From NCBI GenBank assembly GCA_903954185.1, contig CAJBMM010000005.1, positions 1,768-65,767 on the forward strand: a stretch of 64,000 nt of DNA. The letters are read 5' to 3'. A program made the translations under genes and the position numbers. This document shows positions 1 through 50,750 of this stretch, in pieces. The notes beneath the pieces are model-generated. The model saw only the letters and a program-made list of their open reading frames with translations, was not told the origin of the DNA and did not search any database. Position 1 is the stretch's first letter; every line of letters starts with the position of its first letter. Origin of the DNA: an uncultured Candidatus Berkelbacteria bacterium (GTDB lineage: Bacteria; Patescibacteriota; UBA1384; CAJBMM01).

Positions 1-224
1 AGTAACCGTAATTGCCATATTTTCCCTCCTATTGGTTACTTATAGTATAACTGTTTCTGTGGCGATGTTACAACAGGATATTTGTAAGGAATACGTCGCC
101 TCATTACCACACTGTGGGCGGACGCATAGGTGCCGCCCCTACAATCGTTTATACTACACGGCTAACTTTTAGTCATTAGTCCTTAGACCTTAGTCATTCC
201 TATTCCTACAAGCTACTCAGTCTT

Positions 225-3218
225 CTAGACAGCTGTTTCCCTTAACACCTCGTCCACTGTGGTCATACCCTCTAGAGCCTTTAGCAAGCCGTCTTGCTTC
301 ATGGTTATCATACCCTCGATAATTGCTTGTTTCTGAATTTCGCTAGTTGCTGCCTTTTTAATTGCCAAATCTTCGATTGCATCACTCATTGACATAACCT
401 CATAAATTCCAATACGTCCTTTATACCCGTTTTGGCATCGCTCGCAACCCTTGCCATGATAAAACACCAACTCGGACTTTATTCTTGCTCTGTCTTTAGG
501 ATTATTTTCGGGAATTTTATTAAGTTCTTCTTGAATTTCGGCAATTACTGCCGGTGGAATTTGAGCAGGCTCTTTGCAACTTTGACAAACTCTACGCACC
601 AAACGTTGACCCATGATAGCATTTATCGATGAAGTGATAAGAAAAGGTTCTACTCCCATATTAATTAAGCGCGGCAACGCTCCGGGAGCATCATTTGTAT
701 GCAGGGTAGAAAGCACCAAATGTCCTGTTAAAGCAGCGTGTGTGGCCATATTAGCGGTTTCAGAATCGCGAATTTCTCCAACCATCACCACATTTGGATC
801 TTGCCGCAAAACAGAACGTAACCCCTCTGCAAAGGTAAAACCAATTTTTGGCTTAATTTGGGCCTGATTTACACCCGCTATCTCATACTCCACAGGATCT
901 TCTAGCGTAATAATATTAACAGTGGGTGTGCTTATACGATTTAAAATTGCATAAAGTGTTGTAGATTTTCCAGAACCAGTCGGTCCAGTAGAAAGTACAA
1001 TGCCATATGGACGTTTTATTCCCTCGATGATTATATCAAACGCGCGTCCAACTACGCCTAAATCTTCTAAAGACAAGATACCATGTGTTTTATCTAAAAT
1101 ACGAAGCACTATCTTTTCACCGTGAACCGTAGGCATAGAAGAAACACGTAAATCTACTGCCCTATCCTTAAACTTCACATCAAATCTGCCATCTTGAGGA
1201 ATGCGGGTTTCATCAATTTTTAATTTGGCTAATATTTTAATGCGGCTAACAATCGCGGCGTGCTGCTCTAATGGCATTCTTATAACATCTTGGAGCATTC
1301 CGTCTACTCTATATCGGATACGTACATCATTAAGCTCTGCCTCTATGTGCACATCAGATGCCCGCAATGTAATTGCGTAACTTACTATTGCGGCAACCAT
1401 CCGCGGAATAAAACCTTCAACGATAATTTTTTGAAGTTCTTCTACTGTTTGCACGTCTTTATTCAATAATGAACCGAGGTCGTCTTCTTCTACATTTGCC
1501 TGTGGAAGCGTTGGTGGAATAATTGGATTATTTTTATCTGATTGTATTGGAATATTGACTTTTGAGGCCTGTGCGATAGGCGCAGCATTAACGGGTGGAA
1601 TTGGCGTGGGCGGAATATTAACATTCTGAAAAACATTAAAGGTGCCCGAACCCAAACGCGCAGAAGCGGAATCGTCTTTCTCTATAGAATGTGGTGTTAC
1701 TGGCGCTGGCGCAGCAACTGGCGCTGGACTTTCAGATGCATACTGAGTTATTACAACATCATCTTCTTTTTTAACCTGGGCTTTAATTTCTGGTTCAATA
1801 TTCGCCTCGGAACGGTTTGCATGCGCAAGCCCAAGCGAAACCATCGCCTTATGAAAGCCAGACTCTGGTTTTATCGCCTTGGTCTTGATAGCTGATTCGT
1901 TTACAGAATCGGGTTTCTGAATAATCTGTTTGTTTTTTTCTGTTGGAGTTTTTACATTTTCATCATTAAATGGTATAGAGACTTTCTTTGGAACAATTTG
2001 AGGTGATGTAGGTACATTTTTTGGCGGAATCGGTAATGCAGAAACTGGCAATGAATTATGAACGCCTGCAGGAGCATGCACAACATTTGTTTCTGTTGGC
2101 TTGCCAGGTAAGTTATGTGGCATCGACATCGGCGCAGGCAATAGCCACTTTGCCACATTCGCATCTGGTAATTTTAACTTTTCTGTTTCTTCATCATATT
2201 TTGCGATCCACTTATCTAAAATGCCCGAATCGTGTTTTTCGATTATCAATAGGACATTATTATGTTCTTCAATAAAGTGCCAAATACGCTTATCTTCCTC
2301 GCGCTGGTCCCTATCGGTTGCAATGTAATATTTTGGCTTCTGGTTAGGCAATTTTTCTAACTTATATACAACAAATCGATATTTACTGGCAACAGCTTTA
2401 GGAATTTTTAGCATCGCGCTTCGATCTGGGTTTTCTGGCAAGTCCTGGATTCGCTTACCATCATATAGGCTTAGACCGTAATCTATATTGACACTGTCAA
2501 ATTTTTTAATTATAAACTTTATTTTATTATTATCACTAATAAATTTTATAGCTGATTTTACTTTTTCAGAATCAGGATCTTCCGCTGCTAACAAATAGCT
2601 TTCTCCAACCTGACCGTAAACTAACATACGATATTTTATAGCTATAGCGACAGGTATTTTTTGCAGTAACTTGGCATCAACAGTTAGCTTTTCACTCTCG
2701 TTTTTAACTTCTTTTGGCATTGCGGGCGATGAATATTCAGATTCGTTCGGATAAACACTAATCCAACGGTTAAATGAATCTGGCGAAGTAACTACAAGAG
2801 TAAATTGTAGTTTTTCTCTACCCTTAATTTCCGATAACACGCCACGCTTATTTTCTTTAATACGAGCAGGATTTGCCACCGCAACCGTAACTTTATTATT
2901 TTCTTTTTTACAAGCTATAATTTCGTACGAAACACATGCAGATTTAGGAATAATTGTCATTACCGCTAAATCTGGAGTAATTGATAGCTCGGTAAATGGT
3001 AAATTCAATACCTTAGCCATTGCAATATTTATAGCCAATCGATTTACTATATTATGAGACTCTAGATAAGTTGCTAAATCTTTAAGCTCTGGCCAATTGG
3101 TAATTTCATTCTTAATGCCCTGAAGCACTGTGTCATTAATAGAACCAGCCAAACGTAAAAAATCGAGCAAAGATGCTTTCTTTTCGGCTTCAGATTTAGT
3201 AAGCACAGATAAGGCCAT
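225..3218 (-). CDS. pilB: Type IV pilus / type II secretion assembly ATPase (GspE/PilB family), unusually long (997 aa), with repeated GspE-N-like N-terminal domains and a Pro-rich linker
   Basis: C-terminal half carries Walker A GPTGSGKSTT, the conserved Asp/His boxes and the CQSC...CERC tetracysteine motif typical of GspE/PilB. The N-terminal ~500 aa contains three segments resembling the GspE N-terminal domain. A Pro-rich stretch (PAPVAAPAPVTP...) links them to the ATPase. Confidence 0.85.
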   Translation of the reverse strand: MALSVLTKSEAEKKASLLDFLRLAGSINDTVLQGIKNEITNWPELKDLATYLESHNIVNRLAINIAMAKVLNLPFTELSITPDLAVMTIIPKSACVSYEIIACKKENNKVTVAVANPARIKENKRGVLSEIKGREKLQFTLVVTSPDSFNRWISVYPNESEYSSPAMPKEVKNESEKLTVDAKLLQKIPVAIAIKYRMLVYGQVGESYLLAAEDPDSEKVKSAIKFISDNNKIKFIIKKFDSVNIDYGLSLYDGKRIQDLPENPDRSAMLKIPKAVASKYRFVVYKLEKLPNQKPKYYIATDRDQREEDKRIWHFIEEHNNVLLIIEKHDSGILDKWIAKYDEETEKLKLPDANVAKWLLPAPMSMPHNLPGKPTETNVVHAPAGVHNSLPVSALPIPPKNVPTSPQIVPKKVSIPFNDENVKTPTEKNKQIIQKPDSVNESAIKTKAIKPESGFHKAMVSLGLAHANRSEANIEPEIKAQVKKEDDVVITQYASESPAPVAAPAPVTPHSIEKDDSASARLGSGTFNVFQNVNIPPTPIPPVNAAPIAQASKVNIPIQSDKNNPIIPPTLPQANVEEDDLGSLLNKDVQTVEELQKIIVEGFIPRMVAAIVSYAITLRASDVHIEAELNDVRIRYRVDGMLQDVIRMPLEQHAAIVSRIKILAKLKIDETRIPQDGRFDVKFKDRAVDLRVSSMPTVHGEKIVLRILDKTHGILSLEDLGVVGRAFDIIIEGIKRPYGIVLSTGPTGSGKSTTLYAILNRISTPTVNIITLEDPVEYEIAGVNQAQIKPKIGFTFAEGLRSVLRQDPNVVMVGEIRDSETANMATHAALTGHLVLSTLHTNDAPGALPRLINMGVEPFLITSSINAIMGQRLVRRVCQSCKEPAQIPPAVIAEIQEELNKIPENNPKDRARIKSELVFYHGKGCERCQNGYKGRIGIYEVMSMSDAIEDLAIKKAATSEIQKQAIIEGMITMKQDGLLKALEGMTTVDEVLRETAV

Positions 3219-3228
3219 ATTTTAGCCC

Positions 3229-3489
3229 CTATTCTGATGCGTTAAATAGTTGCGCTGGGTTTTTAGAGAGTGTGTCTGCATTAACAGGCACTTGACCAGT
3301 TTTCTTTAATTTGGCGACATAAAGCGCAGCCGTATCAGAAGCACCCTTTATTGCTGCAGGGTCTGCTGAAACAGTGCTGTTCATCGTCTCAATAACCTCA
3401 ATTTTATAAAGGTTTCGATGATAAATAAAACCACCAATTACTGCCCCAACTAAAGCTAATGCAGCTAATATTGGTCCTATTTGCCTCAT
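3229..3489 (-). CDS. small membrane-anchored protein in the pilus operon (function unknown)
   Basis: N-terminal hydrophobic helix ILAALALVGAVIGGFIY. It overlaps the upstream ORF by 4 nt and lies 10 nt from pilB, suggesting co-transcription. Confidence 0.4.
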   Translation of the reverse strand: MRQIGPILAALALVGAVIGGFIYHRNLYKIEVIETMNSTVSADPAAIKGASDTAALYVAKLKKTGQVPVNADTLSKNPAQLFNASE

Positions 3490-4088
3490 TTTACCACCTC
3501 CGGTGCCATACTACTATTAGTATTATTCTGATTTGTCACAACAACTTCAGAGCTTCCGCTTCCGTTAAAAGTCACCATAGATAATGCAATATTTACACTC
3601 GTAGAACCAGCGATGGGTGAAATTATTAGGTTTTTAACATACATTGGTCGAATACTCGATGCAAAAGCATCAAAAAGATTATTTAGCTTAGCAGGATCGC
3701 CCGATACCGAGAGTGTGAAATCATTTTGGTTAGATGCCACGCCACCCGCAATAGATTTAGTTAATGTTGGGCTAAAGCTTGTTACCGTAAAACCCTCAAC
3801 AGTTTTCATTAATGATTCAACCTGTTCAATAGTTTCGGGTAATGCATCGCCCTGTGGCAACCCTGCTAAATCTATTTGCGCCATAGCAGTTTCTAGCGTC
3901 GTCAAAGGTGAGATTATATTATTAATACTCTCTAGCCGAGATTTTTTTGTTTGATTATCCAGCTCTAAAGTTTTTTGAGCCGTCTTAGTATCTTGATATT
4001 TTTTACCGAATAAAAACTGCACGGATACAAAGCAAACCGCAATAATTATAACACATATCATGATAACATTTTTTTGTGCCCCGTTCAT
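3486..4088 (-). CDS. PilO-like pilus assembly protein (N-terminal TM helix, coiled coil, periplasmic domain)
   Basis: Topology (TM IMICVIIIAVCFVSVQFLF followed by coiled coil) and operon position only. The 4-nt overlaps with neighbours are typical of pilMNOP operons. Confidence 0.4.
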   Translation of the reverse strand: MNGAQKNVIMICVIIIAVCFVSVQFLFGKKYQDTKTAQKTLELDNQTKKSRLESINNIISPLTTLETAMAQIDLAGLPQGDALPETIEQVESLMKTVEGFTVTSFSPTLTKSIAGGVASNQNDFTLSVSGDPAKLNNLFDAFASSIRPMYVKNLIISPIAGSTSVNIALSMVTFNGSGSSEVVVTNQNNTNSSMAPEVVK

Positions 4089-4792
4089 TGCATTCCTTTA
4101 TCTGCCTGCACGGCTACAATAGTTGCTAATTTAAGTAAATCGGGGTTTAGTGAAAAACTAATAGAAAAATTGGCTAAATCGCCTCCTAATTCTGCCACTT
4201 TAGCGTTTTTACTAATAGAAGACAGCGAAACTGCAGAAAATACTTTTACCTTTGTGCCAGTTTTTGTTGTGTCGTCGTTTGGATAAATTGTTGTTTCAGC
4301 ATCACGATAAGATACTAACTGGCGAGCGGCCATACCGTAAGCAGAAATATCATCGGTCTCGTTTTTCACCGATGTTGCCTGACCATCTATCTTAACCGCC
4401 AGTTTTTCATCAATACTCATACCAGTAATCGAAACACCGCTTAAAGTATAGGAAGATATTGTAGGCACCACTTTTACCCACGCAGTTCTTCCATCAATTA
4501 ATTTTTTATATGTTTGATATTTAGAAAACAGTTCGACTGATCTAGATTCAACTGTGCCCGTACTCCATTTATTTACGGTTGCGATTTGAGAATCTAACGA
4601 GTCAGACTCAGTTTGCAGGCTTTTTACTCTAGCTGAAGCACGCGTTGAGCTAAAAATGTACCAACCAACCTCGCCAACTGCAACTGCAGCGCAAATAATA
4701 GCCACAATAACCACACTGCCCCATATTGACGCACCTTGATATGGCTCTGGCACCCTTGGTTTTGTAATAAAGTCATTATTCATTAAGCTCAT
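4085..4792 (-). CDS. PilN-like pilus assembly protein (N-terminal TM helix plus periplasmic domain)
   Basis: TM helix SVVIVAIICAAVAVGEVGWYIF and operon context. No PilM/PilC/PilT is present in this window. Confidence 0.4.
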   Translation of the reverse strand: MSLMNNDFITKPRVPEPYQGASIWGSVVIVAIICAAVAVGEVGWYIFSSTRASARVKSLQTESDSLDSQIATVNKWSTGTVESRSVELFSKYQTYKKLIDGRTAWVKVVPTISSYTLSGVSITGMSIDEKLAVKIDGQATSVKNETDDISAYGMAARQLVSYRDAETTIYPNDDTTKTGTKVKVFSAVSLSSISKNAKVAELGGDLANFSISFSLNPDLLKLATIVAVQADKGMQ

Positions 4793-4903
4793 GCCCCTTA
4801 AGCATTAATAATCAATCTATTATAAGTATAAATAAACGCTTACCACAAGTCAACGAACTTCGCGCATCGCACAACTTGTAACGCGTATCGGTATAAAGGA
4901 AAA

Positions 4904-5257
4904 TTATAGTTTAGATATAATGCCCCAAAGCATTGCTCCGATACGATTCGCAACCTGAGCATATTCATCAAAGCTCTTTTTAGGCAAATACCCCTCTTTT
5001 AAACTAAAATCTAATAGATATTCTGACTCTTTATGCGAACCACAAGAAATTTCTAAAAAATTCTTATTCACTTTAGTTTTTACTCGAGCAAGGCCTTAAG
5101 CATAATTCAACATCACCGAAAGCGCTGAACATCTCAATAGAGAAGTAACGCCATATATTTCCTCCTTGGGAAAACTTCTTGTTATGGCATAAATACCGTG
5201 GGCGTAACCACCGATTAATGATTTTAGCTCTTCATGAAATTTGGAAGTGCTATCCAT
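4904..5257 (-). pseudogene. four-helix-bundle protein (23S rRNA intervening-sequence protein / DGR Avd-like family) interrupted by an in-frame TAA at 5096..5098
   Basis: Minus-strand translation MDSTSKFHEELKSLIGGYAHGIYAITRSFPKEEIYGVTSLLRCSALSVMLNYA*GLARVKTKVNKNFLEISCGSHKESEYLLDFSLKEGYLPKKSFDEYAQVANRIGAMLWGIISKL shows the family hallmarks (G.YA.GIY.IT..FPKEE.YGLTSQLRR ... FL.IA.GS..E). Reading continues in frame through a single TAA. It is not in the ORF track because each half is short. Confidence 0.6.
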
Positions 5258-5309
5258 AATAAAATTCCTTTAAAACGATGTGCGATGCGTCTTACACGAT
5301 GCGCAACCC

Positions 5310-7076
5310 CTAGGGGTTATCTGAGACGCTAACCGTTGGAGAAAGCTTAGCCATCCCTGGAGGCGGATTTTGAGCTAGTGAAGAATCGTAGCTAACAGTT
5401 AAATTAACACTATCGGCCGAATCGGGCGTTGACACTCCAGAAAAATCGACATTTTGCCTTGCTACAATTGCCCCCAATAAACTTAAAGATTGACTGCCGC
5501 TAGATGTTAGCCCTATAAAATTATGATTGGCAAAGACAGCGACAGATTTTAAATTCGAATTACCAGATACGTTAGTTTGCCAAGCTACATCTTCGCTAGC
5601 AATTAAACCCAGAGCTGCACCAGAAGATTTTTCTATACTTATGTTTTTTATCGTTAATTTGCCGTTAACATAAATTGTTCCAAGCCCAACATTTGTGAGT
5701 GTTTTTATCGCCGAATCAGATTCGATAGCCAAATCCCCATCTATAAACCAAACGTAACCACCTTTTTTCGGGTTTTTAACAGATGCAGAGCTGTTTGTTA
5801 AATTTTGAGCTGATAAATCTAAAATACCAGACCCACTAGTTAATGGTTTTAGATGAAATACGGGGTCTGCATCACAGCTACCATCACAAGTTAAATCGAA
5901 AGCCTGATTTGCCCCAGAAATAATATTTTTAATACTATGAAAATTTGATTTACTTATTACGAAATCTGGATTTTTGCGAACAAGAGCCAAATTTACATCT
6001 AAATATACATTTCCAGACGCGCTAGAACTTAAATCGGTATTTAAACCGGTTACAGAACCATTATCAATTGAATAACTAACATTTTGATTTGCCGTAGATC
6101 CTTTAACTCCACTCGCAATGTGATCACCTGGTAAAAGCACGTTGGACACATTTGATTGATCTACAGTTATTCCCGAGCCAATTTTAATACTGCCTATTAC
6201 AGCGCTTGCAGGAACAGTCATTAATAATGCGCTTGCCGATGCAACCTGAGATCCGCCTACAGATACGGTAGCCTTTGTGTTATACAAGCACACGCCGCCA
6301 CGATTATTTGTATAATTACCATTACACGATAACGAATTATCATTCACAGGCGTACCCACCATAGATCTTAAACCAACCGTATCACCACTTGTAACAGTAG
6401 TATTGCCAACACTAACAGTTACTCCTGGAATCATAAACGCCATATCATATAAATCTGTGTCGCCAGTTTTCTTTACAAACGAACTGGCTACACTATTTTC
6501 TGTTGGAGTATCGATATTTGGTGTAAACATAATATAACCGATGTTAAAAATGTAGTTACTTTGACCGTTATAAACATCGGCCGATGTAACAGGAAATGCA
6601 ACTAAGCGTGATTTATTGCTTGGCATATTTTGAGCCCCAGTTACGGTATAACGCATTTCGGCTTGTTTACCCGCTTCAATTTGCGGTGAAACTCCGGTTG
6701 CCAAACCGTTCGCAAAAGTAACCGAGCCGCCCAAAGCCTCATTAGTTCCAACATTATACCAACCTCCAGCAGAAGGTGTAGTAAAACCATATGTATCTGA
6801 AAGATATGAATCTTTTAATGATATTGAGCCTGTAGACGCGCCAAAATTGGTTACTACGATAGATATTTTAACAACATCGGTTGGTCTAATTACAGTGGCG
6901 CCAATATTTGTCGATACTGCTTGCCCAGCGACAACTTTAGAAGTTGTGCTTTTAAAGGTTTTACTAGCAATAAATGCTGTGGAATTTGCAGCTTTTATGC
7001 GAAACGAACCAAGAACAACCATGGTAAATAACAATAACGCGCAAGTTAGAAAGTATGTTAAATTTTTTCGATTCAT
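5310..7076 (-). CDS. secreted Ser/Thr/Gly/Asn-rich protein (588 aa) with signal peptide; possible pilus-associated adhesin
   Basis: N-terminal signal peptide MNRKNLTYFLTCALLLFTMVVLGSFRIKAANS. Low-complexity beta-rich composition. No recognisable catalytic motif. Immediately downstream of the 953-aa surface protein on the same strand. Confidence 0.55.
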   Translation of the reverse strand: MNRKNLTYFLTCALLLFTMVVLGSFRIKAANSTAFIASKTFKSTTSKVVAGQAVSTNIGATVIRPTDVVKISIVVTNFGASTGSISLKDSYLSDTYGFTTPSAGGWYNVGTNEALGGSVTFANGLATGVSPQIEAGKQAEMRYTVTGAQNMPSNKSRLVAFPVTSADVYNGQSNYIFNIGYIMFTPNIDTPTENSVASSFVKKTGDTDLYDMAFMIPGVTVSVGNTTVTSGDTVGLRSMVGTPVNDNSLSCNGNYTNNRGGVCLYNTKATVSVGGSQVASASALLMTVPASAVIGSIKIGSGITVDQSNVSNVLLPGDHIASGVKGSTANQNVSYSIDNGSVTGLNTDLSSSASGNVYLDVNLALVRKNPDFVISKSNFHSIKNIISGANQAFDLTCDGSCDADPVFHLKPLTSGSGILDLSAQNLTNSSASVKNPKKGGYVWFIDGDLAIESDSAIKTLTNVGLGTIYVNGKLTIKNISIEKSSGAALGLIASEDVAWQTNVSGNSNLKSVAVFANHNFIGLTSSGSQSLSLLGAIVARQNVDFSGVSTPDSADSVNLTVSYDSSLAQNPPPGMAKLSPTVSVSDNP

Positions 7077-7092
7077 GCCATTCCTTTACTAC

Positions 7093-9954
7093 TTATTTAA
7101 CTTGGGTAGCATACTCAACCACAATAGTTCCGTTTGCAGGTACTGTTAGGGGTGATATTGAGATGGTACTAGTATTAACATCGTTTATTGCTAATTCAGT
7201 ATTGTTACCGCCGCTTACAACTACAATATTTTTGTCTCCATTATATTTAAACAATGTCATACCATCTATCGGCAAGGTATCAGTAACTGAAACACCTGTC
7301 ATTGCACTAGATGATAGATTAGTTACATATATTTTAACTCTAATATATTTACCAGTTGTAAGAGTCAGGCCGTTATACCAATTTCCGTCACTGGTAATTG
7401 AATCTCTATTTGATGGACTACCAGTATTATACTGTTGCACCTGCTTTGAAATCTGCAAATTTGATCCGCTAGATTCGCCACCGCTACAATATGTTGCCCC
7501 TAAATCGATAATTCCCGGTTCCCCACCGCTACCCCCAGCACTAATTTTTAGATTGTTAGAGGAGTTCATAAATCCACTAGGCTTACAAAAATCTACGCCT
7601 TTTGGCCAAGCGCTCGAGTCACCAACGTTAACTAGCGTAGAAGTATAACTAGAAGCCGAAACCCTAACTAACCCACCACCCCCATTACCAGGGACTGCAT
7701 AACAATCCAATGATGTGCTTGGACAATCTGTGCCGTCTGTCCATTTTTGACCAAAACTACTTCCGCCAACGGCGTATAGGTTTGAATTTGACGATAAGTC
7801 AAACACACCAGTCACTTTTACATTTATACTTCCGCCACCGCCCGCTCCTGCTCCAGATGAACCAGAGACACCCGATGCAGATATTGTAGAACTATTCATG
7901 GTTAAATTACCACCAACTGTTAATTTAACAGACCCCCCGCCTGATCCGCCAATTTCTATAGGGTAAGCTGAGCTAGTCGCACCGCCACCACCCATTGCCA
8001 TCGCAACTGCATCAAAAGCAGCTCCATTATACGCACCGCGATACGATGTGCCATTTAAAGTAGCAGTCTGATCCCCTGGACCCGCAATCCCAGGTGCATC
8101 CCCGCCGCTATCGATACCTCCACCATAGCCCAAATATCCTCCACCACCCAAACCGGGCCTACCCATGTTACCAACTGAGTTATTACCCACCCTCACGTCA
8201 GCAATAGATGCGGTATATGATCCGCCACCATAGCCTATCACTCCACCGCCACCACCACCAGAATGCTGAGGTGAAGCATGGCCACTATGTCCGCCGCCGC
8301 CACCATTTCCTTCTGCCCAGTTTGAACCAAATTCAGTCCAATCGTTATGCAATATTGGATAGTAACCAAATAAAGTATCTTTTGCTTTTCCACCAATACC
8401 CGGCACAGAAACTCCATTTAATAGGTAATTCACTCCGCCAGGTAAACCTTTTCCGCTAACATCAACTGAACCACCGCTTGCAATATTTACATTTCCCGAT
8501 GTTGCTAATCTTATACCGCTCTTTATGCCAGTACTGACTGCATCACTATGGTTTTGTAATTTATAGTTTTGCAAGTAGTGAGGTTGATACTCTACAGCGC
8601 CTTCTATAAATAACCCAAAGCTATACCCCGAGCCATCACCACGCACGGTATTAGAAAATGGATTTCCCGCAGTATCTAACGCACCCCCACCTGGCACTCC
8701 GTAATTGAATACAAATTTTTGGGTGGCTGCACCCCTAGCCTGCATAAAGCCACTAAATGTACCATTATCCATCAAATTTACACGTGAGAAAAAGTGATAA
8801 TCTGGAGGTTGAGCTAAACCATAACCACTACCATTCCAAAGATAAGTTTTATCCAAAGTATGGTTAATTACAGCTGCTCTTTGGCCAGTGGTCTCTTGAG
8901 CGTATTCAAATCTACTATATCCAGAGCCAGCAATATCTACTTTCCCGACATTTACTCCACTTTCTTGTGGTGCAAATAACCACGCTACGGGTAAATATCC
9001 ATCATAAATAATTTTAACAGTACCACCTGTTGCATTTTGATCAACCACTCTTATCCATAATGAAGCAATATGATCGGTATCTACGTCTGCCGCACTGATT
9101 CTTATTGGCATATACTGTGCATTACCGGCATAAGTAGTGCCAACATAAAGTGTCTTTTCACCACCATTTAATAATGTGCGATCTCCTCCGCAAGTATCCG
9201 TTGTTGTTCTAAATGAAGAGTGTAATTTTTCACAATTTCCGTTTGCTAAGCCGTTACCATAAACACTCTGTGACCAAGTAACAGCATCAATTGCAGGCCC
9301 ACTATCACTCGCTACGCTTCCAATATCAACGGCAGTAGCATCATTGTAACCGGATGCTCTCAGTAAAAATGCCCTCTTAGTAGCGCCAGCAGTTTGAACT
9401 TGCATGTCGAAGTATAAAAACCCAGTATATCTACTTACAAAGTAGTCACTACGTGAAGCGTATGGCACTGCATTACCACGAGAATCGGTAGGTGCAGAGG
9501 TAACCTTGGCATTATTTTGCACCAACATACTTTTCACAGAGACATCGCCAACTAAAGTTAGGGTAGCACTGTCGTTTACTGTAATTTCTAAATCGGTAGG
9601 AGTAGTTGTGCAAGCTTTGCCCCTATATGGCGAAACAACTGTATTATTAGCAAAAGTGTATTTAAAATTATCTGCAGACCAGCGGTTCATTGGCCACAAA
9701 CAGGTACCGTCTACTGTACCATTATTTATAAGCATGTAGCTAGCCTCGGACCCAACAATATTTATTGAGTTTCCGGCCCAACTTCCGTCTGCTGCAAAAA
9801 CTTGTTTTTGCACATTATTAAATGAGAAGAATGTCAAGCCCACAAGTACAGCAACGATGGTCGTTATTGAAATATAGCGCTGGGCATGTACATGACGTAC
9901 TTTCCACCACCAAAAGCGCAAATCTGCCTTAACCTGATTTATTCGATCGTTCAT
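7093..9954 (-). CDS. large membrane-anchored glycine-rich surface protein (953 aa) with C-terminal DUF11-like 'conserved repeat domain'
   Basis: Single N-terminal TM helix (ITTIVAVLVGLTFFSF). Extended Gly runs (GGGGGHSGHASPQHSGGGGGGVIGYGGGSY; GGGGYLGYGGGIDSGGDAPG). The C-terminal ~90 aa (IRVKIYVTNLSSSAMTGVSVTDTLP...) resemble the DUF11/CARDB-type repeat of cell-surface proteins. Confidence 0.55.
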   Translation of the reverse strand: MNDRINQVKADLRFWWWKVRHVHAQRYISITTIVAVLVGLTFFSFNNVQKQVFAADGSWAGNSINIVGSEASYMLINNGTVDGTCLWPMNRWSADNFKYTFANNTVVSPYRGKACTTTPTDLEITVNDSATLTLVGDVSVKSMLVQNNAKVTSAPTDSRGNAVPYASRSDYFVSRYTGFLYFDMQVQTAGATKRAFLLRASGYNDATAVDIGSVASDSGPAIDAVTWSQSVYGNGLANGNCEKLHSSFRTTTDTCGGDRTLLNGGEKTLYVGTTYAGNAQYMPIRISAADVDTDHIASLWIRVVDQNATGGTVKIIYDGYLPVAWLFAPQESGVNVGKVDIAGSGYSRFEYAQETTGQRAAVINHTLDKTYLWNGSGYGLAQPPDYHFFSRVNLMDNGTFSGFMQARGAATQKFVFNYGVPGGGALDTAGNPFSNTVRGDGSGYSFGLFIEGAVEYQPHYLQNYKLQNHSDAVSTGIKSGIRLATSGNVNIASGGSVDVSGKGLPGGVNYLLNGVSVPGIGGKAKDTLFGYYPILHNDWTEFGSNWAEGNGGGGGHSGHASPQHSGGGGGGVIGYGGGSYTASIADVRVGNNSVGNMGRPGLGGGGYLGYGGGIDSGGDAPGIAGPGDQTATLNGTSYRGAYNGAAFDAVAMAMGGGGATSSAYPIEIGGSGGGSVKLTVGGNLTMNSSTISASGVSGSSGAGAGGGGSINVKVTGVFDLSSNSNLYAVGGSSFGQKWTDGTDCPSTSLDCYAVPGNGGGGLVRVSASSYTSTLVNVGDSSAWPKGVDFCKPSGFMNSSNNLKISAGGSGGEPGIIDLGATYCSGGESSGSNLQISKQVQQYNTGSPSNRDSITSDGNWYNGLTLTTGKYIRVKIYVTNLSSSAMTGVSVTDTLPIDGMTLFKYNGDKNIVVVSGGNNTELAINDVNTSTISISPLTVPANGTIVVEYATQVK

Positions 9955-10508: not shown

Positions 10509-11891
10509 ATGACAGATAAAATACCTCGTTACAATACTGCTGAAAGAATTGTTGAATCACCAGCACGCGCGCTAGAAAAAACTGTTGATGCAATTGGTGT
10601 AGCCAATAGATACGTAACCTCTAATGGCCCAATAAAAAAAGCCAAAGAATACTGGCAAACTTTAGGGCCTGGGCTAACCACTGGTGCCGCAGACGATGAC
10701 CCGTCGGGAATTGCTACGTATTCACAAACTGGTGCAAAATATGGCTTTCAACTAATTTGGCTAGCAGGCTTTACATATCCTTTAATGGCAATTATTCAAG
10801 AAATGTGCGCTCGAATTGGCATTGTTACAGGGCGCGGTTTAGCATCTACAATTCGCCATCAATTCCCTAAACCCGTACTTTTACTTTGCGCCACTCTACT
10901 TTTTGCCGCTAACTCTTTTAATATTGGCGCCGATTTAGGCGCAATGGCTAAAGCTATTCAATTATTTAAACCAGAGCTTAGCTATAATTTGCTCATAGTA
11001 TTTTTTGCACTTATAAGTTTAAGTTTGCAAATTTTTATTCCTTATAAAATTTATTCAAAATATTTGAAATGGTTAGCACTGGTTTTATTTGCCTATGTAC
11101 TTTCTGCCTTATTAGTCGGCCTAGATTGGCATGCTGTACTTAAGGCTGCCGTAATTCCTTCTCTAAAAGCTGATAAAGATCAAATTATTTTGATTTGCGG
11201 TATTTTAGGCACCACAATATCGCCATATTTATTCTTTTGGCAAACTTCGCAAGAAGTTGAAGAAAAAATAATGGGCGGACAAACCTCTATCAAGCTTCGT
11301 AAAAGCGATGTTACCAACGAGGAAATCAAAAAAATGCGAATTGATATTTGGTCTGGAATGCTGCTATCTAACGCCGCCATGTTCTTTATTATTGCTGCGT
11401 GTGCCGCAACATTATTTAACTTTGGCAATACAAACATTGGCACAGCTGCCGATGCAGCCGAGGCATTAAGACCACTAGCTGGTGACGGAGCTTTCTTGTT
11501 GTTTGCTTTAGGCATTATTGGGGTGGGGCTTTTAGCCATACCCGTGCTGGCTGGCTCTGCTAGTTACGCAATTGCAGAAAGTTTTGGTTGGAAAGAAGGA
11601 TTATTTTACAAGCTTAATGAGGCATATGCATTTTACGGCGTCATTATCATCTCTATGCTATTTGGCCTTGGTATTAACTTTTTTGGACTAGATCCAATAA
11701 AAACGTTAATTTATTCTGCCGTCGCAAACGGTTTGGTTGCCCCAGTTATATTAGTTATAATTGTTTTGATAAGTAGCAATAAAAAAATCATGGGAAGCAG
11801 AGTTAATCACCCAGTTACCACAATAATTGGGTGGCTAATTACCGCTGGCATGATCATCGCAGGATTAGCCACAATATACTCATTCTTTTAA
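10509..11891 (+). CDS. NRAMP-family divalent metal cation transporter (MntH-like)
   Basis: N-terminal GPGLTTGAADDDPSGIATYSQTGAKYGFQLIW resembles the NRAMP signature (GPG...DPGN-IAT...GA.YG..LLW). About 11 predicted TM helices. RBS AAGGAG precedes the ATG. Confidence 0.6.
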   Translation: MTDKIPRYNTAERIVESPARALEKTVDAIGVANRYVTSNGPIKKAKEYWQTLGPGLTTGAADDDPSGIATYSQTGAKYGFQLIWLAGFTYPLMAIIQEMCARIGIVTGRGLASTIRHQFPKPVLLLCATLLFAANSFNIGADLGAMAKAIQLFKPELSYNLLIVFFALISLSLQIFIPYKIYSKYLKWLALVLFAYVLSALLVGLDWHAVLKAAVIPSLKADKDQIILICGILGTTISPYLFFWQTSQEVEEKIMGGQTSIKLRKSDVTNEEIKKMRIDIWSGMLLSNAAMFFIIAACAATLFNFGNTNIGTAADAAEALRPLAGDGAFLLFALGIIGVGLLAIPVLAGSASYAIAESFGWKEGLFYKLNEAYAFYGVIIISMLFGLGINFFGLDPIKTLIYSAVANGLVAPVILVIIVLISSNKKIMGSRVNHPVTTIIGWLITAGMIIAGLATIYSFF

Positions 11892-11899
11892 GGAGAAAA

Positions 11900-13867
11900 G
11901 TGAACACTTCTGAAACAGAAAGCGCAGCAAGATGGATGAGATATTGGATTTTAAAGATGACCACTCGGGCTGAATCTGGACATGTTACATCATCTTTATC
12001 TGCTGTTGATATTTTAGCCGCCATAATGGATAGCGGTTTTATTTACGATGTAGAAAACCCGCATAACCAAAATAATGACCGATTAATCTTTTCTAAAGGC
12101 CATGCAACCCCGTTATATTACTCTTTTTGGGCACTGACCAGTGGTATCGAACCCGAACAATTGCTTGAATATCGTCAGTTTGGCTCTATATTAGAAGGCC
12201 ATCCAACACCGCAATTCATCCATACTATTGCGGCAACTGGTTCTTTAGGAATGGGGCTTGGGATAGGCACAGGAGTAGCTTTAGGATTTAAAAAATTGAA
12301 ATCTACAGGAAAAGTTTGGGTGTTATTAGGTGATGGAGAGCTAGCAGAAGGTTCGGTGTGGGAAAGCGCAGCCTTCGCATCGCAAAACAATCTTAACAAT
12401 TTAATCGCTATTGTAGATATCAATCGGCTTGGCCAATCTGGCGAAACTGCATATGGATGGAACGATAGTGTGTATAAGCAACGTTTTGAGGCATGGGGCT
12501 GGAAAACCATAATTGTTGATGGTCACAATATCAAAGATATTAAGCGAGGCTTGCATGAAGCGTCTCAAATTAGCAATACGCCAATTGTAATTCTAGCGAA
12601 AACTATTAAAGGTAGGGGCGTGTCTTTTTTAGAGAATATCGAAGGGTGGCATGGTAAGGCGTTAAATGAGGAAGAATGCAAACGCGCTTTAGCCGAACTG
12701 GGTGATATAAAACATAATTTACAAATAAAGTTAACAGCACCAAAAACGACGATGCATATAAATCGGAAGGTGGCTCCCGAAATACTGTCATCCTCGACTA
12801 GCCTATTCGAGGATCCAAAAACTAATAATTATGTGGATTCCTGCTTTCGCAGGAATGACGGCCAAAAGAATGGCGATAATTCAAATATAAAAGAACATAT
12901 TCCAAATCCTCTACAACCTACAACCCACAACCCACAACCTGACATTTCGCCTCGTGAAGCAATAGGCCATCAACTTGCCATCGCTGCAGAAGATGATGAT
13001 CGGCTACTCATTATCGATGGTGATGTAAAAAATTCCACACATTCTGAAATTGTCAGCCAAAAAACTCCTGAGCAACTTATAGAATGCTATATCGCCGAGC
13101 AACAAATGGTCGAGCTAGCCATTGGACTAGATAAAATTGGTTTTGCGCCTGTAGTAGATACATTCGCAGCATTTTTAACCAGAGCTCATGACCAAATTCG
13201 CATGGCTGCAATCTCTAAATCGAATATAATATTTATTGGCACTCATGTTGGTATTTCCATTGGAAAGGATGGTCCAAGCCAAATGGGTTTGGAAGATATT
13301 GCTATGTTTCGCCCGTTAGTCGATTCCACCATCGTCTCCCCTGCCGATACTCATAGTGCAATCCAGCTAACTACTCAATTAATCGGTTGTCGCGGAATTA
13401 GATATATTAGAGCCTTACGTGAAGTAACGCCTTGCATATACAATCAAAAAGACCAAATTGAGGTTGGCAAATGGCATGTCTTAAAAAACACATCTAAATC
13501 GCAAGTTGCCATTCTTGCTACTGGCATATCTGTACACAGCGCGCTTAAAGCACATGATAAATTGCTAAGCGATAACATTCCCACTATGATTGTGGATTGC
13601 TATAGTATTAAACCGCTGGATAAAGATAAACTAATAGAAATTGCTACCAAATTTAGACATATAATCATTGTCGAAGATCATTATTATCAAGGCGGGCTAG
13701 GCGATTCAATACTAGAGGCATTAAGCGAATTAAACATCGTTATACCAAATGTTTACAAGATAGCCGTGCAAAATATACCCAGATCTGGCACACCAAAAGA
13801 TTTGATGCAAAACGAGGGTATTGACGAAAAAGGTATAATAAAAAAAGTAAAAATGATTGTAAAATAA
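11900..13867 (+). CDS. tkt: transketolase with N-terminal (TPP-binding) and C-terminal (pyrimidine-binding) halves fused through a ~55-aa linker encoded by a dispersed-repeat insertion
   Basis: N-terminal half: ESGHVTSSLSAVDILAAI, GHATPLYY, LGDGELAEGSVWE. C-terminal half: IAEQQMVELAIGL, GTHVGISIGKDGPSQMG, and C-terminal domain. Likely start is GTG 11900 preceded by AGGAG; the ORF track begins at 11831 and overlaps mntH. Linker 12780..12945 contains the intergenic repeat motif tatgtggattcctgctttcgcaggaatgac. Confidence 0.8.
   Translation: MNTSETESAARWMRYWILKMTTRAESGHVTSSLSAVDILAAIMDSGFIYDVENPHNQNNDRLIFSKGHATPLYYSFWALTSGIEPEQLLEYRQFGSILEGHPTPQFIHTIAATGSLGMGLGIGTGVALGFKKLKSTGKVWVLLGDGELAEGSVWESAAFASQNNLNNLIAIVDINRLGQSGETAYGWNDSVYKQRFEAWGWKTIIVDGHNIKDIKRGLHEASQISNTPIVILAKTIKGRGVSFLENIEGWHGKALNEEECKRALAELGDIKHNLQIKLTAPKTTMHINRKVAPEILSSSTSLFEDPKTNNYVDSCFRRNDGQKNGDNSNIKEHIPNPLQPTTHNPQPDISPREAIGHQLAIAAEDDDRLLIIDGDVKNSTHSEIVSQKTPEQLIECYIAEQQMVELAIGLDKIGFAPVVDTFAAFLTRAHDQIRMAAISKSNIIFIGTHVGISIGKDGPSQMGLEDIAMFRPLVDSTIVSPADTHSAIQLTTQLIGCRGIRYIRALREVTPCIYNQKDQIEVGKWHVLKNTSKSQVAILATGISVHSALKAHDKLLSDNIPTMIVDCYSIKPLDKDKLIEIATKFRHIIIVEDHYYQGGLGDSILEALSELNIVIPNVYKIAVQNIPRSGTPKDLMQNEGIDEKGIIKKVKMIVK
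12826..12859. repeat. dispersed palindromic repeat family A core (ttatgtRgattcctgc-ttcg-gcaggaatgac) located in frame inside tkt
   Basis: Near-identical to intergenic copies at 20607..20640, 24224..24256 and 24183..24207, and to reverse-orientation copies at 19249..19325, 29667..29745 and 59288..59435. Confidence 0.8.
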
Positions 13868-30934: not shown

Positions 30935-33067
30935 ATGGAGAACGTTTTGTCGTATTCAATTGCTAAACTAACTTCTAACACAAATACAGAGCGATCACTC
31001 TATTCTGGAATTGTAGAGCACGATCTAGATCCAATGTATGGCCAAATTATCTATATAATAGATATTCCGCTCCCGCCGGTAATTTCTGAACCAATTGTCA
31101 ACGAGATAATAACTACAATTAACGAAGAGTATTTTGGAGTAGAACGTAAAACTGCCATCTATCAATTTGAAGACTGCATAAAACAAATAAACGCCGCCCT
31201 CTCTTTTATTGCAGAGCAAGGAAACAATGAATGGATTGGTCACATCCATGCACTTGTCGCACTTATCGTTGGCGATGAAATTTATATCTCTAATTCTGGT
31301 AGAGCAACAGCCGCCGTCATTCGCGGTTCGCTTTATACACCAATCATTAGTTCTGTCCAAAACCCAAATCAACGCGTTTTAGCTCATAAAACTTTTGCGA
31401 ATTTAGTAAGTGGCCAATTATCAGAAAACGATTTTTTAATTTTTGGAAATAGCGAAGTGAGTCGCCATTTTTCCCCACAATTCTTAAGCCAAGCAGCCAT
31501 AGAAAGCCCAATATCAACAATTCAATCTATGTACCAAGCCGGCCGAAGATTAAACTTACGAAACATTGCCGTAATAGTTGCAAAATTAGAACAAGAAGAT
31601 ATTGGAGTGCCAACAAGCCCTTACTCGATTACACTAGACCAACCACTCGAAGTAACCAATTCATCAATTATTCCCCAAATACCATCCACAAAAAAATATC
31701 GATCTATTGTGATTGGTCAGAGTCTAAAATTTATTACCAATTTTCTGTGGCGAGCAATTAAGACCGGGATTAGATTAATAAAATCTACATTCGAAAAGCC
31801 AAGCACTAACTTAGAATTTCAGAAAACTGAGGGCGAGATTGAAGTTAAATCTTACCATCACTCTAACCATACCTTATTAAAACGCACTCCTGGACAACGA
31901 TTGGTAAATAATTTTGAGCACTGGCATGGCGCTTCAAACAAATATATGCAAATATTACGTACTTTTATGAAGAATTTGTCGCCTCGATATTTAATTACCG
32001 TGGGTGTAATTATAATGGCTATTTTAACCTTAACCATAACTCAAAGAATTGTGAAACATGATTCTGGTAGCTTAACCGAAGCCGAATCTGCAGAGCAAAT
32101 AAACCAAATTACAGCTCTATTTACTGAAACTATTGCCGTAAAAACAAGCAACCCAGAAAAGGCCCGCGGTAATCTTTCGCAGATAAACACAATTTTAAGT
32201 AAACTTGCTAATAGCAATGATCTAAAAGTTAAAGACGCTCAAAATCAGTATTTTTCCCTTGTATCCGAGATTAACAATATAACAAACATTGACGATAAAA
32301 ATAAAATTTTAGTAGCTAAAGATACTAACAATATTCTTGCTATTGGCCAATATTTATTTACTACAAAGCAAAATAGTGGCGATATTTTTAGGTTAACCTT
32401 GGGTAAAGACGAACCAGCAGACAAAATATTTTCAACCCCAGATAACGCTGCTATCACATTTGTAAGCCTGAATGAACCAACCAGAATTCTTACCCTACTA
32501 ACCAAATCTAATCATCTTTATATTTACTCGCTAGATGATCAAACCACCAACTCCATCCTTACCCCACCCCAAGGTGAAAGTTGGCCAAACATAAAGTCAC
32601 TCACTTGGTATCAAAAAAATCTTTATATTTTAGAAAACAACACAGGGATAGTATACAAATATTCGTCTACAGATGGAATAAAATTTTCAGCCAAAAATCC
32701 GTATCTTGCAAGTGAATCTTTTAGTAGCCCAGATGCCCAAAGTATTTCTACCGACGGCTCGATTTACCTACTTTTTGGTTCTGGCGATGTTTCAAAAATT
32801 GTTAAAGGCAACAAACAAAGTTATGGCCCTTTAGAATTGCCTTTGCCAGACAATAAATGGGATAATCCCACGGCGCTATTTACCGGAACAACGACTGGGC
32901 ATCTTTATATTCAAGATAAATCGCGCATCACCGTAACCAACCAAGACGGTACATATCGATCTCAATACAAATTTATATACGGAAATATTGATAACTGCTA
33001 TATTTCATCTATCTCAAAAAGAGGTTGGATATTATCTGGCGAAGTTGTATATCAGTTTAGTCTTTAA
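30935..33067 (+). CDS. membrane protein with N-terminal PP2C-like (probably inactive) phosphatase-fold domain, one TM helix and a large C-terminal extracytoplasmic domain
   Basis: GHIHALVALIVGDEIYISNSGRATAAVIRG resembles the PP2C motif ACVALI.GD.LYVANVGDSRAVL with the GDSR aspartate replaced. TM helix YLITVGVIIMAILTLTI at residues ~355..375. Confidence 0.35.
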   Translation: MENVLSYSIAKLTSNTNTERSLYSGIVEHDLDPMYGQIIYIIDIPLPPVISEPIVNEIITTINEEYFGVERKTAIYQFEDCIKQINAALSFIAEQGNNEWIGHIHALVALIVGDEIYISNSGRATAAVIRGSLYTPIISSVQNPNQRVLAHKTFANLVSGQLSENDFLIFGNSEVSRHFSPQFLSQAAIESPISTIQSMYQAGRRLNLRNIAVIVAKLEQEDIGVPTSPYSITLDQPLEVTNSSIIPQIPSTKKYRSIVIGQSLKFITNFLWRAIKTGIRLIKSTFEKPSTNLEFQKTEGEIEVKSYHHSNHTLLKRTPGQRLVNNFEHWHGASNKYMQILRTFMKNLSPRYLITVGVIIMAILTLTITQRIVKHDSGSLTEAESAEQINQITALFTETIAVKTSNPEKARGNLSQINTILSKLANSNDLKVKDAQNQYFSLVSEINNITNIDDKNKILVAKDTNNILAIGQYLFTTKQNSGDIFRLTLGKDEPADKIFSTPDNAAITFVSLNEPTRILTLLTKSNHLYIYSLDDQTTNSILTPPQGESWPNIKSLTWYQKNLYILENNTGIVYKYSSTDGIKFSAKNPYLASESFSSPDAQSISTDGSIYLLFGSGDVSKIVKGNKQSYGPLELPLPDNKWDNPTALFTGTTTGHLYIQDKSRITVTNQDGTYRSQYKFIYGNIDNCYISSISKRGWILSGEVVYQFSL

Positions 33068-49310: not shown

Positions 49311-50750
49311 TCACCCATGAAGAGAATGCACCGATTTTTCAAACTGCCCTGCTCTATCATAAACATTTTTAAACATCCCAAAACTGGCACAACCGGGTGA
49401 AAATAGTACATAATCACCTTCGCTCGTTGATTTTTCCGCTAAACGAACTATTTCGTTCATACTATTGGTATTTTCTAAAATTATTTCAGGGGTAGTTGCT
49501 TTTTCTTTAGCAGACACATCTTCAATACATTGTTTGATTTCTTTTGCAGTATCACCCACTAACAAAACTTTAGATATTCCACATCTAATCAACTGTAACG
49601 CCAAATTTTCAAAGCCATATCCTTTAGAGCTACCCCCAATTATTACTAGCGGATTATTAACAGCATAAGCCTGAATAGCCGCTTCGGTGGAATCTGGGGC
49701 AGTAGAGAATGCATCATCTATCCAAATCCTTCCAGAGAACTTTCCAATTTCAACCAATCTGTGGGGTAAACCAGAAAAACCACCCAGTGTTTGCCTAATC
49801 GATTTATAAGACACCCCATAAGAAAGCGCTACCGCTATCGCTGCACAAATATTGGATAAGTTATGCTCACCCCGTAGCTTAATACTTCTGCTATTAATGA
49901 TTTTTTTATTGATTAACATCCCACTCTCAACTATCCATACGTTACCATTATATTTTTTTACAAAGACCCCAGGATCGACATATTTTCTAGTCGAAAACCA
50001 TGTAGTGCAAGCTTGGGTTAACATTGCAAAATTAACCGAGGTTAATGAATCGGCATTTAAAATTGCCAAATCTTTTTTATATTGGTGTTGCACGATATTA
50101 GATTTTGCCTCCACATATTCGTCTAATGTTTTATGATGATTAAGATGCTCGACTGTTATATCTTGTACTACAGCGACGTGTGGGCTTATTGACAAGCCTT
50201 GCAACTGAAAACTAGATAACTCCAGTACTGCTAACTCATTCTTATCAATATCTACCAACCAATCGATAAAAGACTCACCGATATTGCCTCCATATCGAAC
50301 TTTTTTGCCACCGTCTAACAACAATTTGTAAATGAGAGCTGTTGTAGTACTTTTACCTTTAGTGCCCGTAACAGCGACGGTATGATGCGCGTAATATTGT
50401 AAAAAAATCTCAGTTTGACTAGTCACCTCTACGCCATTTTTTTTAGCCTCTTGTATTTCTGCAGTTAGATACGGAATTCCAGGACTGCGCACAATAACAT
50501 CAACCTCACCCAATCCACTCAAATAATCAACACCGCCAATAATAGATGTTTCCTCTAATTTAGAAATTAGGAATTCGTCATTAGAAATTGCGGACTTTAT
50601 CTCACTCGCACTCTTTTTATCTCTAAGATCGATCAGCGCACCGTATTTCACCAAAAACCCGGCTACCGCTACCCCTTCTTTTCCGCATCCCAAAATTGCT
50701 ACGGTTTTACCCGAGAATCTTTTTTTCAGTTCATTATTAATATTCATCAC
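49311..50750 (-). CDS. murD: UDP-N-acetylmuramoylalanine--D-glutamate ligase
   Basis: N-terminal KTVAILGCGKEGVAVAGFL Rossmann region, Mur ligase P-loop GTKGKSTTT. Positional assignment between mraY and ftsW. Confidence 0.85.
   Translation of the reverse strand: MMNINNELKKRFSGKTVAILGCGKEGVAVAGFLVKYGALIDLRDKKSASEIKSAISNDEFLISKLEETSIIGGVDYLSGLGEVDVIVRSPGIPYLTAEIQEAKKNGVEVTSQTEIFLQYYAHHTVAVTGTKGKSTTTALIYKLLLDGGKKVRYGGNIGESFIDWLVDIDKNELAVLELSSFQLQGLSISPHVAVVQDITVEHLNHHKTLDEYVEAKSNIVQHQYKKDLAILNADSLTSVNFAMLTQACTTWFSTRKYVDPGVFVKKYNGNVWIVESGMLINKKIINSRSIKLRGEHNLSNICAAIAVALSYGVSYKSIRQTLGGFSGLPHRLVEIGKFSGRIWIDDAFSTAPDSTEAAIQAYAVNNPLVIIGGSSKGYGFENLALQLIRCGISKVLLVGDTAKEIKQCIEDVSAKEKATTPEIILENTNSMNEIVRLAEKSTSEGDYVLFSPGCASFGMFKNVYDRAGQFEKSVHSLHG

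Follow-up and report, generated by a model that had tools for sequence, protein, structure and literature searches.

A type IV pilus gene cluster of an uncultured Candidatus Berkelbacteria lineage with an expanded PilB and two linked, putatively Sec-exported surface proteins

Type IV pili are the best-documented organelles of host attachment and motility in Saccharibacteria and other episymbionts of the candidate phyla radiation (CPR), while the molecules with which CPR epibionts recognise their hosts are, to our knowledge, largely unknown. This study concerns a type IV pilus gene cluster in a 64,000-nucleotide (nt) stretch of DNA, here called the window, from an uncultured Candidatus Berkelbacteria bacterium (contig CAJBMM010000005.1, assembly GCA_903954185.1). 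The cluster encodes an unusually long PilB and, directly upstream of its pilN-like gene, two large predicted surface proteins of 953 and 588 amino acids (aa). All coordinates follow the numbering of the window unless a contig is named, and all genes of the cluster lie on the minus strand.

One of the closest described systems is that of TM7x (Nanosynbacter lyticus), in which type IV pili drive twitching and host binding, the loci encode PilM, and large PilX proteins are candidate tip adhesins (PMC11623550). Pilus locus one of TM7x, which comes from the same phylum-level group, shares with the present cluster PilB, PilT, PilC, PilN, PilO and PilD, together with several pilins and with accessory PilX proteins of large size that are without PilD signals (PMC11623550). 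The present cluster differs in that pilM was not found and in that pilN is preceded by a pair of unrelated large proteins predicted to be Sec-exported. Three other systems are relevant to individual proteins. PilF of Thermus thermophilus has a triplicated GSPII N-terminus, two of whose three domains bind cyclic di-GMP (c-di-GMP) (PMC11731258), and ComZ of the same organism is a competence-associated beta-solenoid pilin associated with the pilus tip (PMC6561018; PDB 6qvi). The tapirins of Caldicellulosiruptor are secreted beta-helix proteins encoded next to a type IV pilus locus (bioRxiv 10.1101/359786; PDB 4wa0, 6n2b).

Set beside these systems, the locus is best regarded as a variant, specific to one clade, of the type IV pilus cluster of Saccharibacteria. 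Its PilB has an expanded and tethered N-terminus, pilM is not among its genes, and two surface proteins that appear to be Sec-exported are associated with it. The arrangement differs from the TM7x loci in composition, not in kind.

Organisation of the cluster and linkage of the two large genes

Open reading frames (ORFs) were taken from the six-frame ORF list of the window, and the whole series of genes that the original prediction had placed on the minus strand was found there. The two large genes, both read directly from the ORF list, encode the 953-aa protein with a predicted export signal (7093-9954) and the 588-aa protein, putatively secreted by Sec (5310-7076). They are followed by a four-helix-bundle pseudogene of the 23S rRNA IVS type, formed by two short ORFs jointly (4904-5257), and by genes for a PilN-like bitopic membrane protein of 235 aa (4085-4792), a 200-aa PilO (3486-4088), an 86-aa protein with a single transmembrane (TM) segment, recognised by its conserved position (3229-3489), and the 997-aa PilB extension ATPase (225-3218). 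The first six codons of pilT occupy positions 1-17. Spacing is tight within two blocks: 16 nt separate the 953-aa and 588-aa genes, and in the second block pilN overlaps pilO by 4 nt, pilO overlaps the 86-aa gene by 4 nt, and a gap of 10 nt precedes pilB. The earlier description of 4-nt overlaps or short gaps throughout applies inside these blocks but not between them, where 517 nt lie between the 588-aa gene and pilN, nor between pilB and pilT (207 nt).

An exact-sequence look-up of PilB recovered the same contig in public assemblies (L001; ENA ERZ18659389 scaffold_391), with 14 contigs in all. On L001, pilB is followed by genes for PilT (355 aa; L001 13201-14268, PF00437), PilC (399 aa), two pilins with N-methylation motifs, and PilD, the Pfam matches over L001 13201-18155 being PF00437, PF00482, PF07963 twice and PF01478. 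Further downstream are two weaker prepilin-like proteins, a second and intact four-helix-bundle gene, and a PilX_N-type protein. The statement that no pilM, pilC, pilT or pilin is in the window is thus literally correct for pilC, pilT and pilins, and pilM was indeed not found, but the absence of pilT, pilC and pilins is an artefact of the window edge. A cluster devoid of these genes was rejected, since they directly follow pilB on the source contig. Positions 1-9954 of the window hold the upstream portion of a type IVa-like pilus cluster that is complete and monoderm in style, and the gene identities support the earlier call of a type IV pilus locus whose PilB is unusually long.

As regards the components that define a type IVa pilus, the extension ATPase was found, as were PilT, PilC, a prepilin peptidase, pilins with an N-methylation motif, and PilN with PilO. 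A PilM encoded with pilN-pilO was found neither in the cluster nor in related clusters, nor among 45 Pfam-scanned proteins (36 window ORFs and nine L001 genes downstream of pilB), a scan that covered about 74 kb and did not extend to the remaining genome. There is also no secretin in the cluster, and none would be expected in a cell that lacks an outer membrane.

Neither the 235-aa nor the 200-aa protein of the window matched Pfam directly, and the earlier PilN-like and PilO-like calls were borne out by profile comparisons with orthologues. The 200-aa protein aligned with a 193-aa protein of contig L011 (hhalign probability 99.9, E = 2.8e-37), which itself matches PF04350 PilO at 41.9 bits (gathering cut-off, GA, 22), and with the PilO of contig L013 (probability 95.6, 8.7e-19). 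It can be identified as PilO by this transitive homology to Pfam-positive orthologues. The case for the 235-aa protein is weaker and the name PilN-like is appropriate: a four-sequence profile of its family found Myxococcus PilN (3jc8_Na, E = 0.0015) as the sole PDB match at E <= 10, and the comparison with the positional orthologue in L013, which is Pfam-PilN-positive, gave a probability of 68. When the PilN and PilO profiles were compared with each other the probability was 12. The 86-aa protein has positional orthologues of 86-98 aa in L003, L004, L005, L008, L011, L013 and L014; it has a single TM segment, belongs to no recognisable family and keeps its position in all related clusters, occupying the usual place of PilP, to which homology was not shown.

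The two large proteins belong to narrow families. A word-index search returned five homologues for the 953-aa protein and two for the 588-aa protein, and hardly any more were gained with a four-sequence profile. An exhaustive HMMER search of 1.84 billion cluster representatives with the 588-aa profile found 13 proteins, 11 of them at E <= 1e-30, comprising ten full-length members of 568-617 aa and one (P0016, 460 aa) that is truncated at the N-terminus; no member was found within any other kind of protein in this search. The proteins encoded upstream of the 588-family genes are all BLASTP homologues of the 953-aa protein, with E values from 1e-6 to 1e-153.

Gene order was compared in 11 lineages, namely the window, L003, L004, L005 (L005/L006), L007, L008, L009, L010, L011, L012 and L014, the relatives showing sequence identities to the window of between 60% and about 29-30%. 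A common order of a large protein (940-1246 aa), a protein of about 570-620 aa, proteins of about 235, 200 and 90 aa, PilB, PilT and PilC was recovered in 11/11 lineages. In all 11 the pair stands directly upstream of pilN-pilO-small gene-pilB, including where the flanking genes differ: in L004 and L010 a methyltransferase or CHAP gene lies upstream of the pair and adjacency to pilN is kept. The remote locus L013, with unrelated upstream genes, encodes in order a 763-aa protein of the same layout, a 364-aa protein (P0019), Pfam-positive PilN and PilO, a 98-aa protein, a 760-aa PilB, PilT, PilC, two pilins and PilD. No family member was found in any other context across these 12 loci. A scan of GTDB species representatives gave two loci, both labelled uncultured Candidatus Saccharibacteria, and a scan of JGI metagenomes gave one.

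The pair is thus strictly linked to the cluster, and the proposed link of the large proteins to the pilus locus held in this comparison. The linkage to pilN is the main evidence for a functional tie, of a circumstantial kind, and on it we favour, if only modestly, a role for the pair as a clade-specific surface accessory (pilus-accessory or adhesin) that works with the pilus.

The expanded N-terminus of PilB

The ATPase core of PilB is of the standard PilB/GspE type, occupying the C-terminal ~400 residues with its motifs intact. It matches T2SSE at 6.7e-127 and TIGR02538 at 7.7e-157, the latter score lying under the equivalog cut-off because the N-terminus is divergent. PDB chains of PilB, GspE and Thermus PilF match aa 575-995 at about 1e-108 to 1e-117, and the Walker A motif, Asp box, His box and two CxxC pairs (a tetracysteine) lie at aa 745, 773, 838, 878 and 925. 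The N2 domain and the core together correspond to nt 225-1418.

The N-terminal triplication claimed in the original prediction was confirmed. Module 1 (aa 1-165; nt 2724-3218) matches Pfam MshEN (PF05157) at 1.6e-6 and 28.5 bits, and module 2 (aa 166-265; nt 2424-2723) does so at 7.4e-5 and 23.1 bits (GA 23.1). Module 3 (aa 266-370; nt 2109-2423) has no direct MshEN match and was recognised by BLASTP to module 2 (E = 4e-11) and to module 1 (E = 5e-5). The Pro/Ala/Val-rich linker is also present, its length being about 230 aa (aa 371-600; nt 1419-2108) rather than the ~150 first proposed; it is composed of 13% P, 10% V and 10% A and has no family match. PilB of the relatives is 934-998 aa long, and identity to them falls from 72-92% in the ATPase core to 22-64% in the modules and 20-36% in the linker. 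In a Saccharibacteria metagenome-assembled genome from GTDB (L007 4202-7082), either a frameshift or an assembly error has divided the long pilB between two ORFs of 456 and 540 aa that overlap.

A known counterpart to this architecture is Thermus thermophilus PilF (PMC11731258; PDB 6f8l), likewise a PilB-type ATPase of great length in which three GSPII/MshEN-type domains follow one another at the N-terminus before a conserved core, which matches that of the present PilB at 1.5e-108. The two differ in that here only module 1 has full domain length, modules 2 and 3 being about 100 aa each, in the absence of the c-di-GMP motif, and in the insertion of the Pro/Val/Ala-rich linker. The 24-residue motif RLGxx(L/V/I)(L/V/I)xxG(L/V/I)(L/V/I)xxxxLxxxLxxQ has no match in PilB, the best 24-mer agreeing at 5/11 specified positions, and sensing of c-di-GMP by PilB through the classic motif was therefore rejected. 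It seems more likely that the modules serve protein-protein contacts than that they bind c-di-GMP. PilB can be described as a normal extension ATPase whose N-terminus has been expanded to three GSPII/MshEN-type modules followed by a putatively disordered Pro-rich tether.

Export and architecture of the two large proteins

The N-termini of both large-protein families are of the Sec type with AXA sites; they lack a G/FTLIE-like prepilin motif and give no N_methyl match. The Gly, Ala, Ser and Thr content is 40-42% in both large proteins compared with 24% in PilB. The suggestion that the proteins are secreted or positioned by the pilus system was not upheld, as both have these ordinary Sec-type N-termini and no prepilin motif. 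The candidacy of the 588-aa protein as a pilin was rejected on the lack of a class III signal. Both proteins are more probably exported by Sec than by the pilus machine; the 953-aa protein would probably be kept anchored by its N-terminal TM helix with its conserved tail in the cytoplasm, and the 588-aa protein would be released once its signal peptide is cleaved.

The 953-aa protein consists of a basic, Trp-rich, predicted cytoplasmic tail of 26 aa, a TM segment at aa 27-46, beta-rich domains, a Gly-rich region at aa 540-830 (20-38% Gly), and a C-terminal DUF11 or immunoglobulin (Ig)-like module. Its description as TM-anchored is plausible, with the qualification that an AXA-like signal-peptidase site follows the hydrophobic segment in the family and cleavage is possible. 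The predicted DUF11-like C-terminus does have matches, but below curated cut-offs (PF01345 at 0.0097, 16.7 versus 24.6 bits; TIGR01451 at 0.0027, 17.7 versus 24; best family member 0.00095), so that Ig/DUF11-like serves as a description only. Between this module and the one at the N-terminus of the 588-aa protein there is a weak likeness (hhalign E = 9e-4, probability 23). The model of the 953-aa protein, built with five sequences supplied, has a predicted local distance difference test (pLDDT) score of 48, and its best Foldseek matches are weak ones to Ig-like pilin or adhesin domains. One orthologue (P0005; L005 10001-13741, on a 516-kb Patescibacteria contig) has an extra LamG/concanavalin-like domain of about 250 aa before the conserved C-terminal strands, which may be modular variation of the kind seen in adhesins.

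The tail (KADLRFWWWKVR...RY) is conserved in every orthologue, while the extracellular middle of the protein is variable and gap-rich. In the window it is encoded at 9877-9954 (aa 1-26), with the sequence MNDRINQVKADLRFWWWKVRHVHAQRY, and such conservation is unusual for a mere signal-peptide n-region. A different role for the pair, as a structural and envelope-spanning part of the machine, may be considered at this point: the two proteins would substitute for PilM or for a secretin/PilP-like collar, with the tail docking to PilN or to the expanded PilB N-terminus. This is consistent with the contrast between tail and middle, with the absence of pilM from a cluster in which the pair stands before pilN, where pilM normally sits, with the presence of PilM in the TM7x loci (PMC11623550), and with the co-occurrence of the PilB expansion and the pair. 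The conserved n-region could nevertheless be an extended signal peptide, given the AXA site behind the TM segment; PilM may be encoded outside the ~74 kb that were checked; L013 has the pair and yet a shorter PilB of 760 aa; and there is no interaction evidence. A structural role of this kind is judged rather improbable. In its most specific form, PilM would have been dropped from pilMNO and replaced by a two-protein envelope-spanning accessory, the Trp/Arg-rich tail of the 953-aa protein coupling to PilN or the PilB N-terminus and its Gly-rich/Ig part forming with the 588-aa solenoid an exit collar or a host-binding tip complex. We regard that form as improbable; if true, it would be a new architecture by which the motor of a type IV pilus is joined to the surface of an ultra-small cell bounded by a wall.

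The 588-aa protein, in turn, begins with a cleavable signal peptide and a DUF11-like module, continues with a middle region in which two Cys residues are invariant, and closes with a beta-solenoid in its C-terminal part and an NPPPG tail that is conserved. Neither for it nor for its 12 relatives was a Pfam or NCBIfam family found. The remote P0019 of L013 shows homology to the family over the latter's C-terminal half (probability 98.9 in hhalign), and is itself matched below threshold by DUF7305 (PF23981; 16.8 versus 27 bits) and also by bactofilin-type solenoids. The model of the 588-aa protein has a pLDDT of 37.5 with two sequences supplied, and the low values of both models reflect the small numbers of sequences provided (two and five). 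The best Foldseek match of this low-confidence model is ComZ of Thermus at E = 0.032, which is not significant. Fold matches to its C-terminal part were led by ice-binding proteins at 9.3-9.4, followed by ComZ at 9.0 with the longest alignment (171 residues), by a Caldicellulosiruptor 'possible adhesin' and tapirin at 8.7 and 8.1, and by generic beta-helix enzymes and tailspikes at 6.5-8.2. Such results on a predicted model would give the fold class of the protein, not its function.

The solenoid fold raises the question whether one or both proteins are secreted beta-helix carbohydrate-active enzymes, lyases or hydrolases, acting on the wall or capsule of the host. Generic beta-helix enzymes do occur among the lower fold matches, but the top matches are non-enzymatic solenoids (ice-binding proteins, ComZ, tapirin), and the solenoid is short, at about 130-170 aligned residues. 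Profile-versus-PDB sequence searches, Pfam and NCBIfam gave no match to an enzyme family for either large family, even with family profiles, and an enzymatic role is very unlikely. Structure prediction, which had been proposed as a check, thus showed beta-solenoid and Ig-like leanings and no recognised enzyme, albeit in low-confidence models with nothing significant; it points weakly to beta-solenoid plus Ig-like proteins of a surface or adhesin type rather than to a recognisable enzyme family.

Likeness to the named solenoids is correspondingly limited. The 588 family, with predicted Sec signal peptides and no long alpha-1 helix, contrasts with ComZ, which carries the class III signal of a prepilin and adopts the fold of a pilin. 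With the tapirins the protein would share a likeness in kind, as a secreted beta-helix protein next to a type IV pilus locus, and not membership, this likeness resting on the low-confidence model; a PDB search with the 588-family profile gave no match to a tapirin chain at E <= 10, and domain layout, host organism and probable ligand differ.

Transcription of the cluster and the role of the pair

A sigma-70-like promoter site, TTGACT-17-TATACT (4825-4853, minus strand), precedes the start codon of the pilN-like gene by 33 nt. L003 retains the two hexamers and the ribosome-binding region with a diverged spacer, and similar sites are found 14-39 nt before pilN in L005, L008, L009, L011 and L013. 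None is present in L004 or L014, the only candidate in L007 is a 10/12 site some 78 nt ahead of the start, and L010 and L012 end before the junction; a promoter-like site before pilN was counted in 7/11 lineages. These counts are not above the shuffled expectation, so the promoter argument rests on position. A scan of the interval from the 588-aa gene to pilN revealed no intrinsic terminator in the window or in L003, L005 and L008, and read-through from the pair to pilN is therefore possible. The pilB-pilT spacer holds a GC-rich hairpin, GGGGCGGCACCTATGCGTCCGCCC, at 116-139 (minus strand) without a T-run, followed by a promoter-like site, TTGTAA-18-TATACT (44-73, minus strand); no Rfam family was matched there, and tRNAs were the only Rfam matches obtained.

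The earlier finding of a four-helix-bundle pseudogene was borne out. The gene contains one in-frame TAA and matches its family only after this codon is replaced, since with TAA read as Glu it matches TIGR02436 at 1.7e-21 (76.5 versus 24 bits), and all public copies of the contig share this break in the frame. An 11-nt perfect inverted repeat (4863-4873 and 5279-5289) brackets the cassette. Its absence from the same site in L003, L004, L005, L008 and L014 indicates an insertion that is probably specific to the lineage of the window. The second, intact cassette (L001 21278-21720) lies between minor-pilin genes and has 37-nt inverted repeats of 84% identity, and L008 retains a remnant consisting only of inverted repeats at the equivalent 588/pilN site (11801-12007). 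These cassettes suggest a small mobile or recombining element that targets the intergenic spacers of the cluster.

Co-transcription of the pair with PilB, as proposed in the original prediction, was not established in view of the 517-nt gap, the decayed cassette and the promoter-like site before pilN, although the lack of a terminator would permit read-through. Expression of the pair is probably driven by a separate promoter upstream of it, and pilN-pilO-86-pilB and pilT may each have internal promoters, read-through from the pair being possible and not required.

As a clade-specific surface accessory, the pair would be built of Ig/DUF11-like modules, a Gly-rich beta region and a beta-solenoid, and would serve to attach the bacterium to its host cell or to the surface of that cell. 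Its nearest analogues would be non-pilin adhesins encoded beside pilus loci, such as tapirins and PilY1, together with the pilus-tip protein ComZ. The earlier proposal of pilus-associated adhesins or a sheath thus keeps its stable linkage and a plausible role, the role itself being one that we infer. Several observations weigh against this reading. Neither large protein is tied to pili by an experiment or a sequence family; the two structure models are of low confidence and Foldseek against PDB returned nothing at E <= 0.001; and the DUF7305 match lies below the Pfam threshold in one remote member only, with 0/12 full-length 588-family members matching at E <= 0.1. The promoter-like site and the tolerated insertion between the pair and pilN mean that tight transcriptional coupling is not required. 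In the closer relatives synteny extends to the genes for Nramp, transketolase, PspC, dCMP deaminase and L33, and part of the conserved order is for that reason general collinearity.

The last two points would equally suit general envelope or S-layer-type proteins with no functional tie to the pilus, whose position is simply inherited in a small, slowly rearranging clade. The housekeeping neighbours are syntenic in L003, L005 and L008, and a high Gly, Ala, Ser and Thr content, Ig-like modules and Gly-rich beta regions suit any surface protein. Yet adjacency to pilN outlasts changes of upstream context in L004, L010 and L013, it reaches a remote homologue shrunk to 364 aa, and the 12 loci offer no other context for the pair. 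A general envelope role is accordingly thought unlikely, and a pilus-accessory or adhesin role remains the one favoured.

Some other genes of the window may be recorded. A 984-aa ORF (51188-54142, minus strand) with weak CarboxypepD_reg-like matches only lies in the dcw cluster between mraY (54143-55162) and murD (49311-50750), and a 710-aa ORF (30935-33067, plus strand) has no Pfam match at E <= 0.001. The class A penicillin-binding protein at 36139-39003 (plus strand), with transglycosylase and transpeptidase domains, has extra C-terminal Big_7 Ig and fn3 / purple-acid-phosphatase-N-like domains. An aminoglycoside 2''-adenylyltransferase match (PF10706, 8.4e-29) was found at 15700-16260 (minus strand) in this reduced CPR genome, beside a NUDIX gene and tRNA-Trp.

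The pair of large proteins may be regarded as clade-specific candidate host-binding or pilus-accessory factors in an uncultured lineage. If their link to the pilus is functional, they would be concrete targets for the study of epibiont attachment; if it is not, the locus would stand as a well-described lineage variant of a known pilus cluster.

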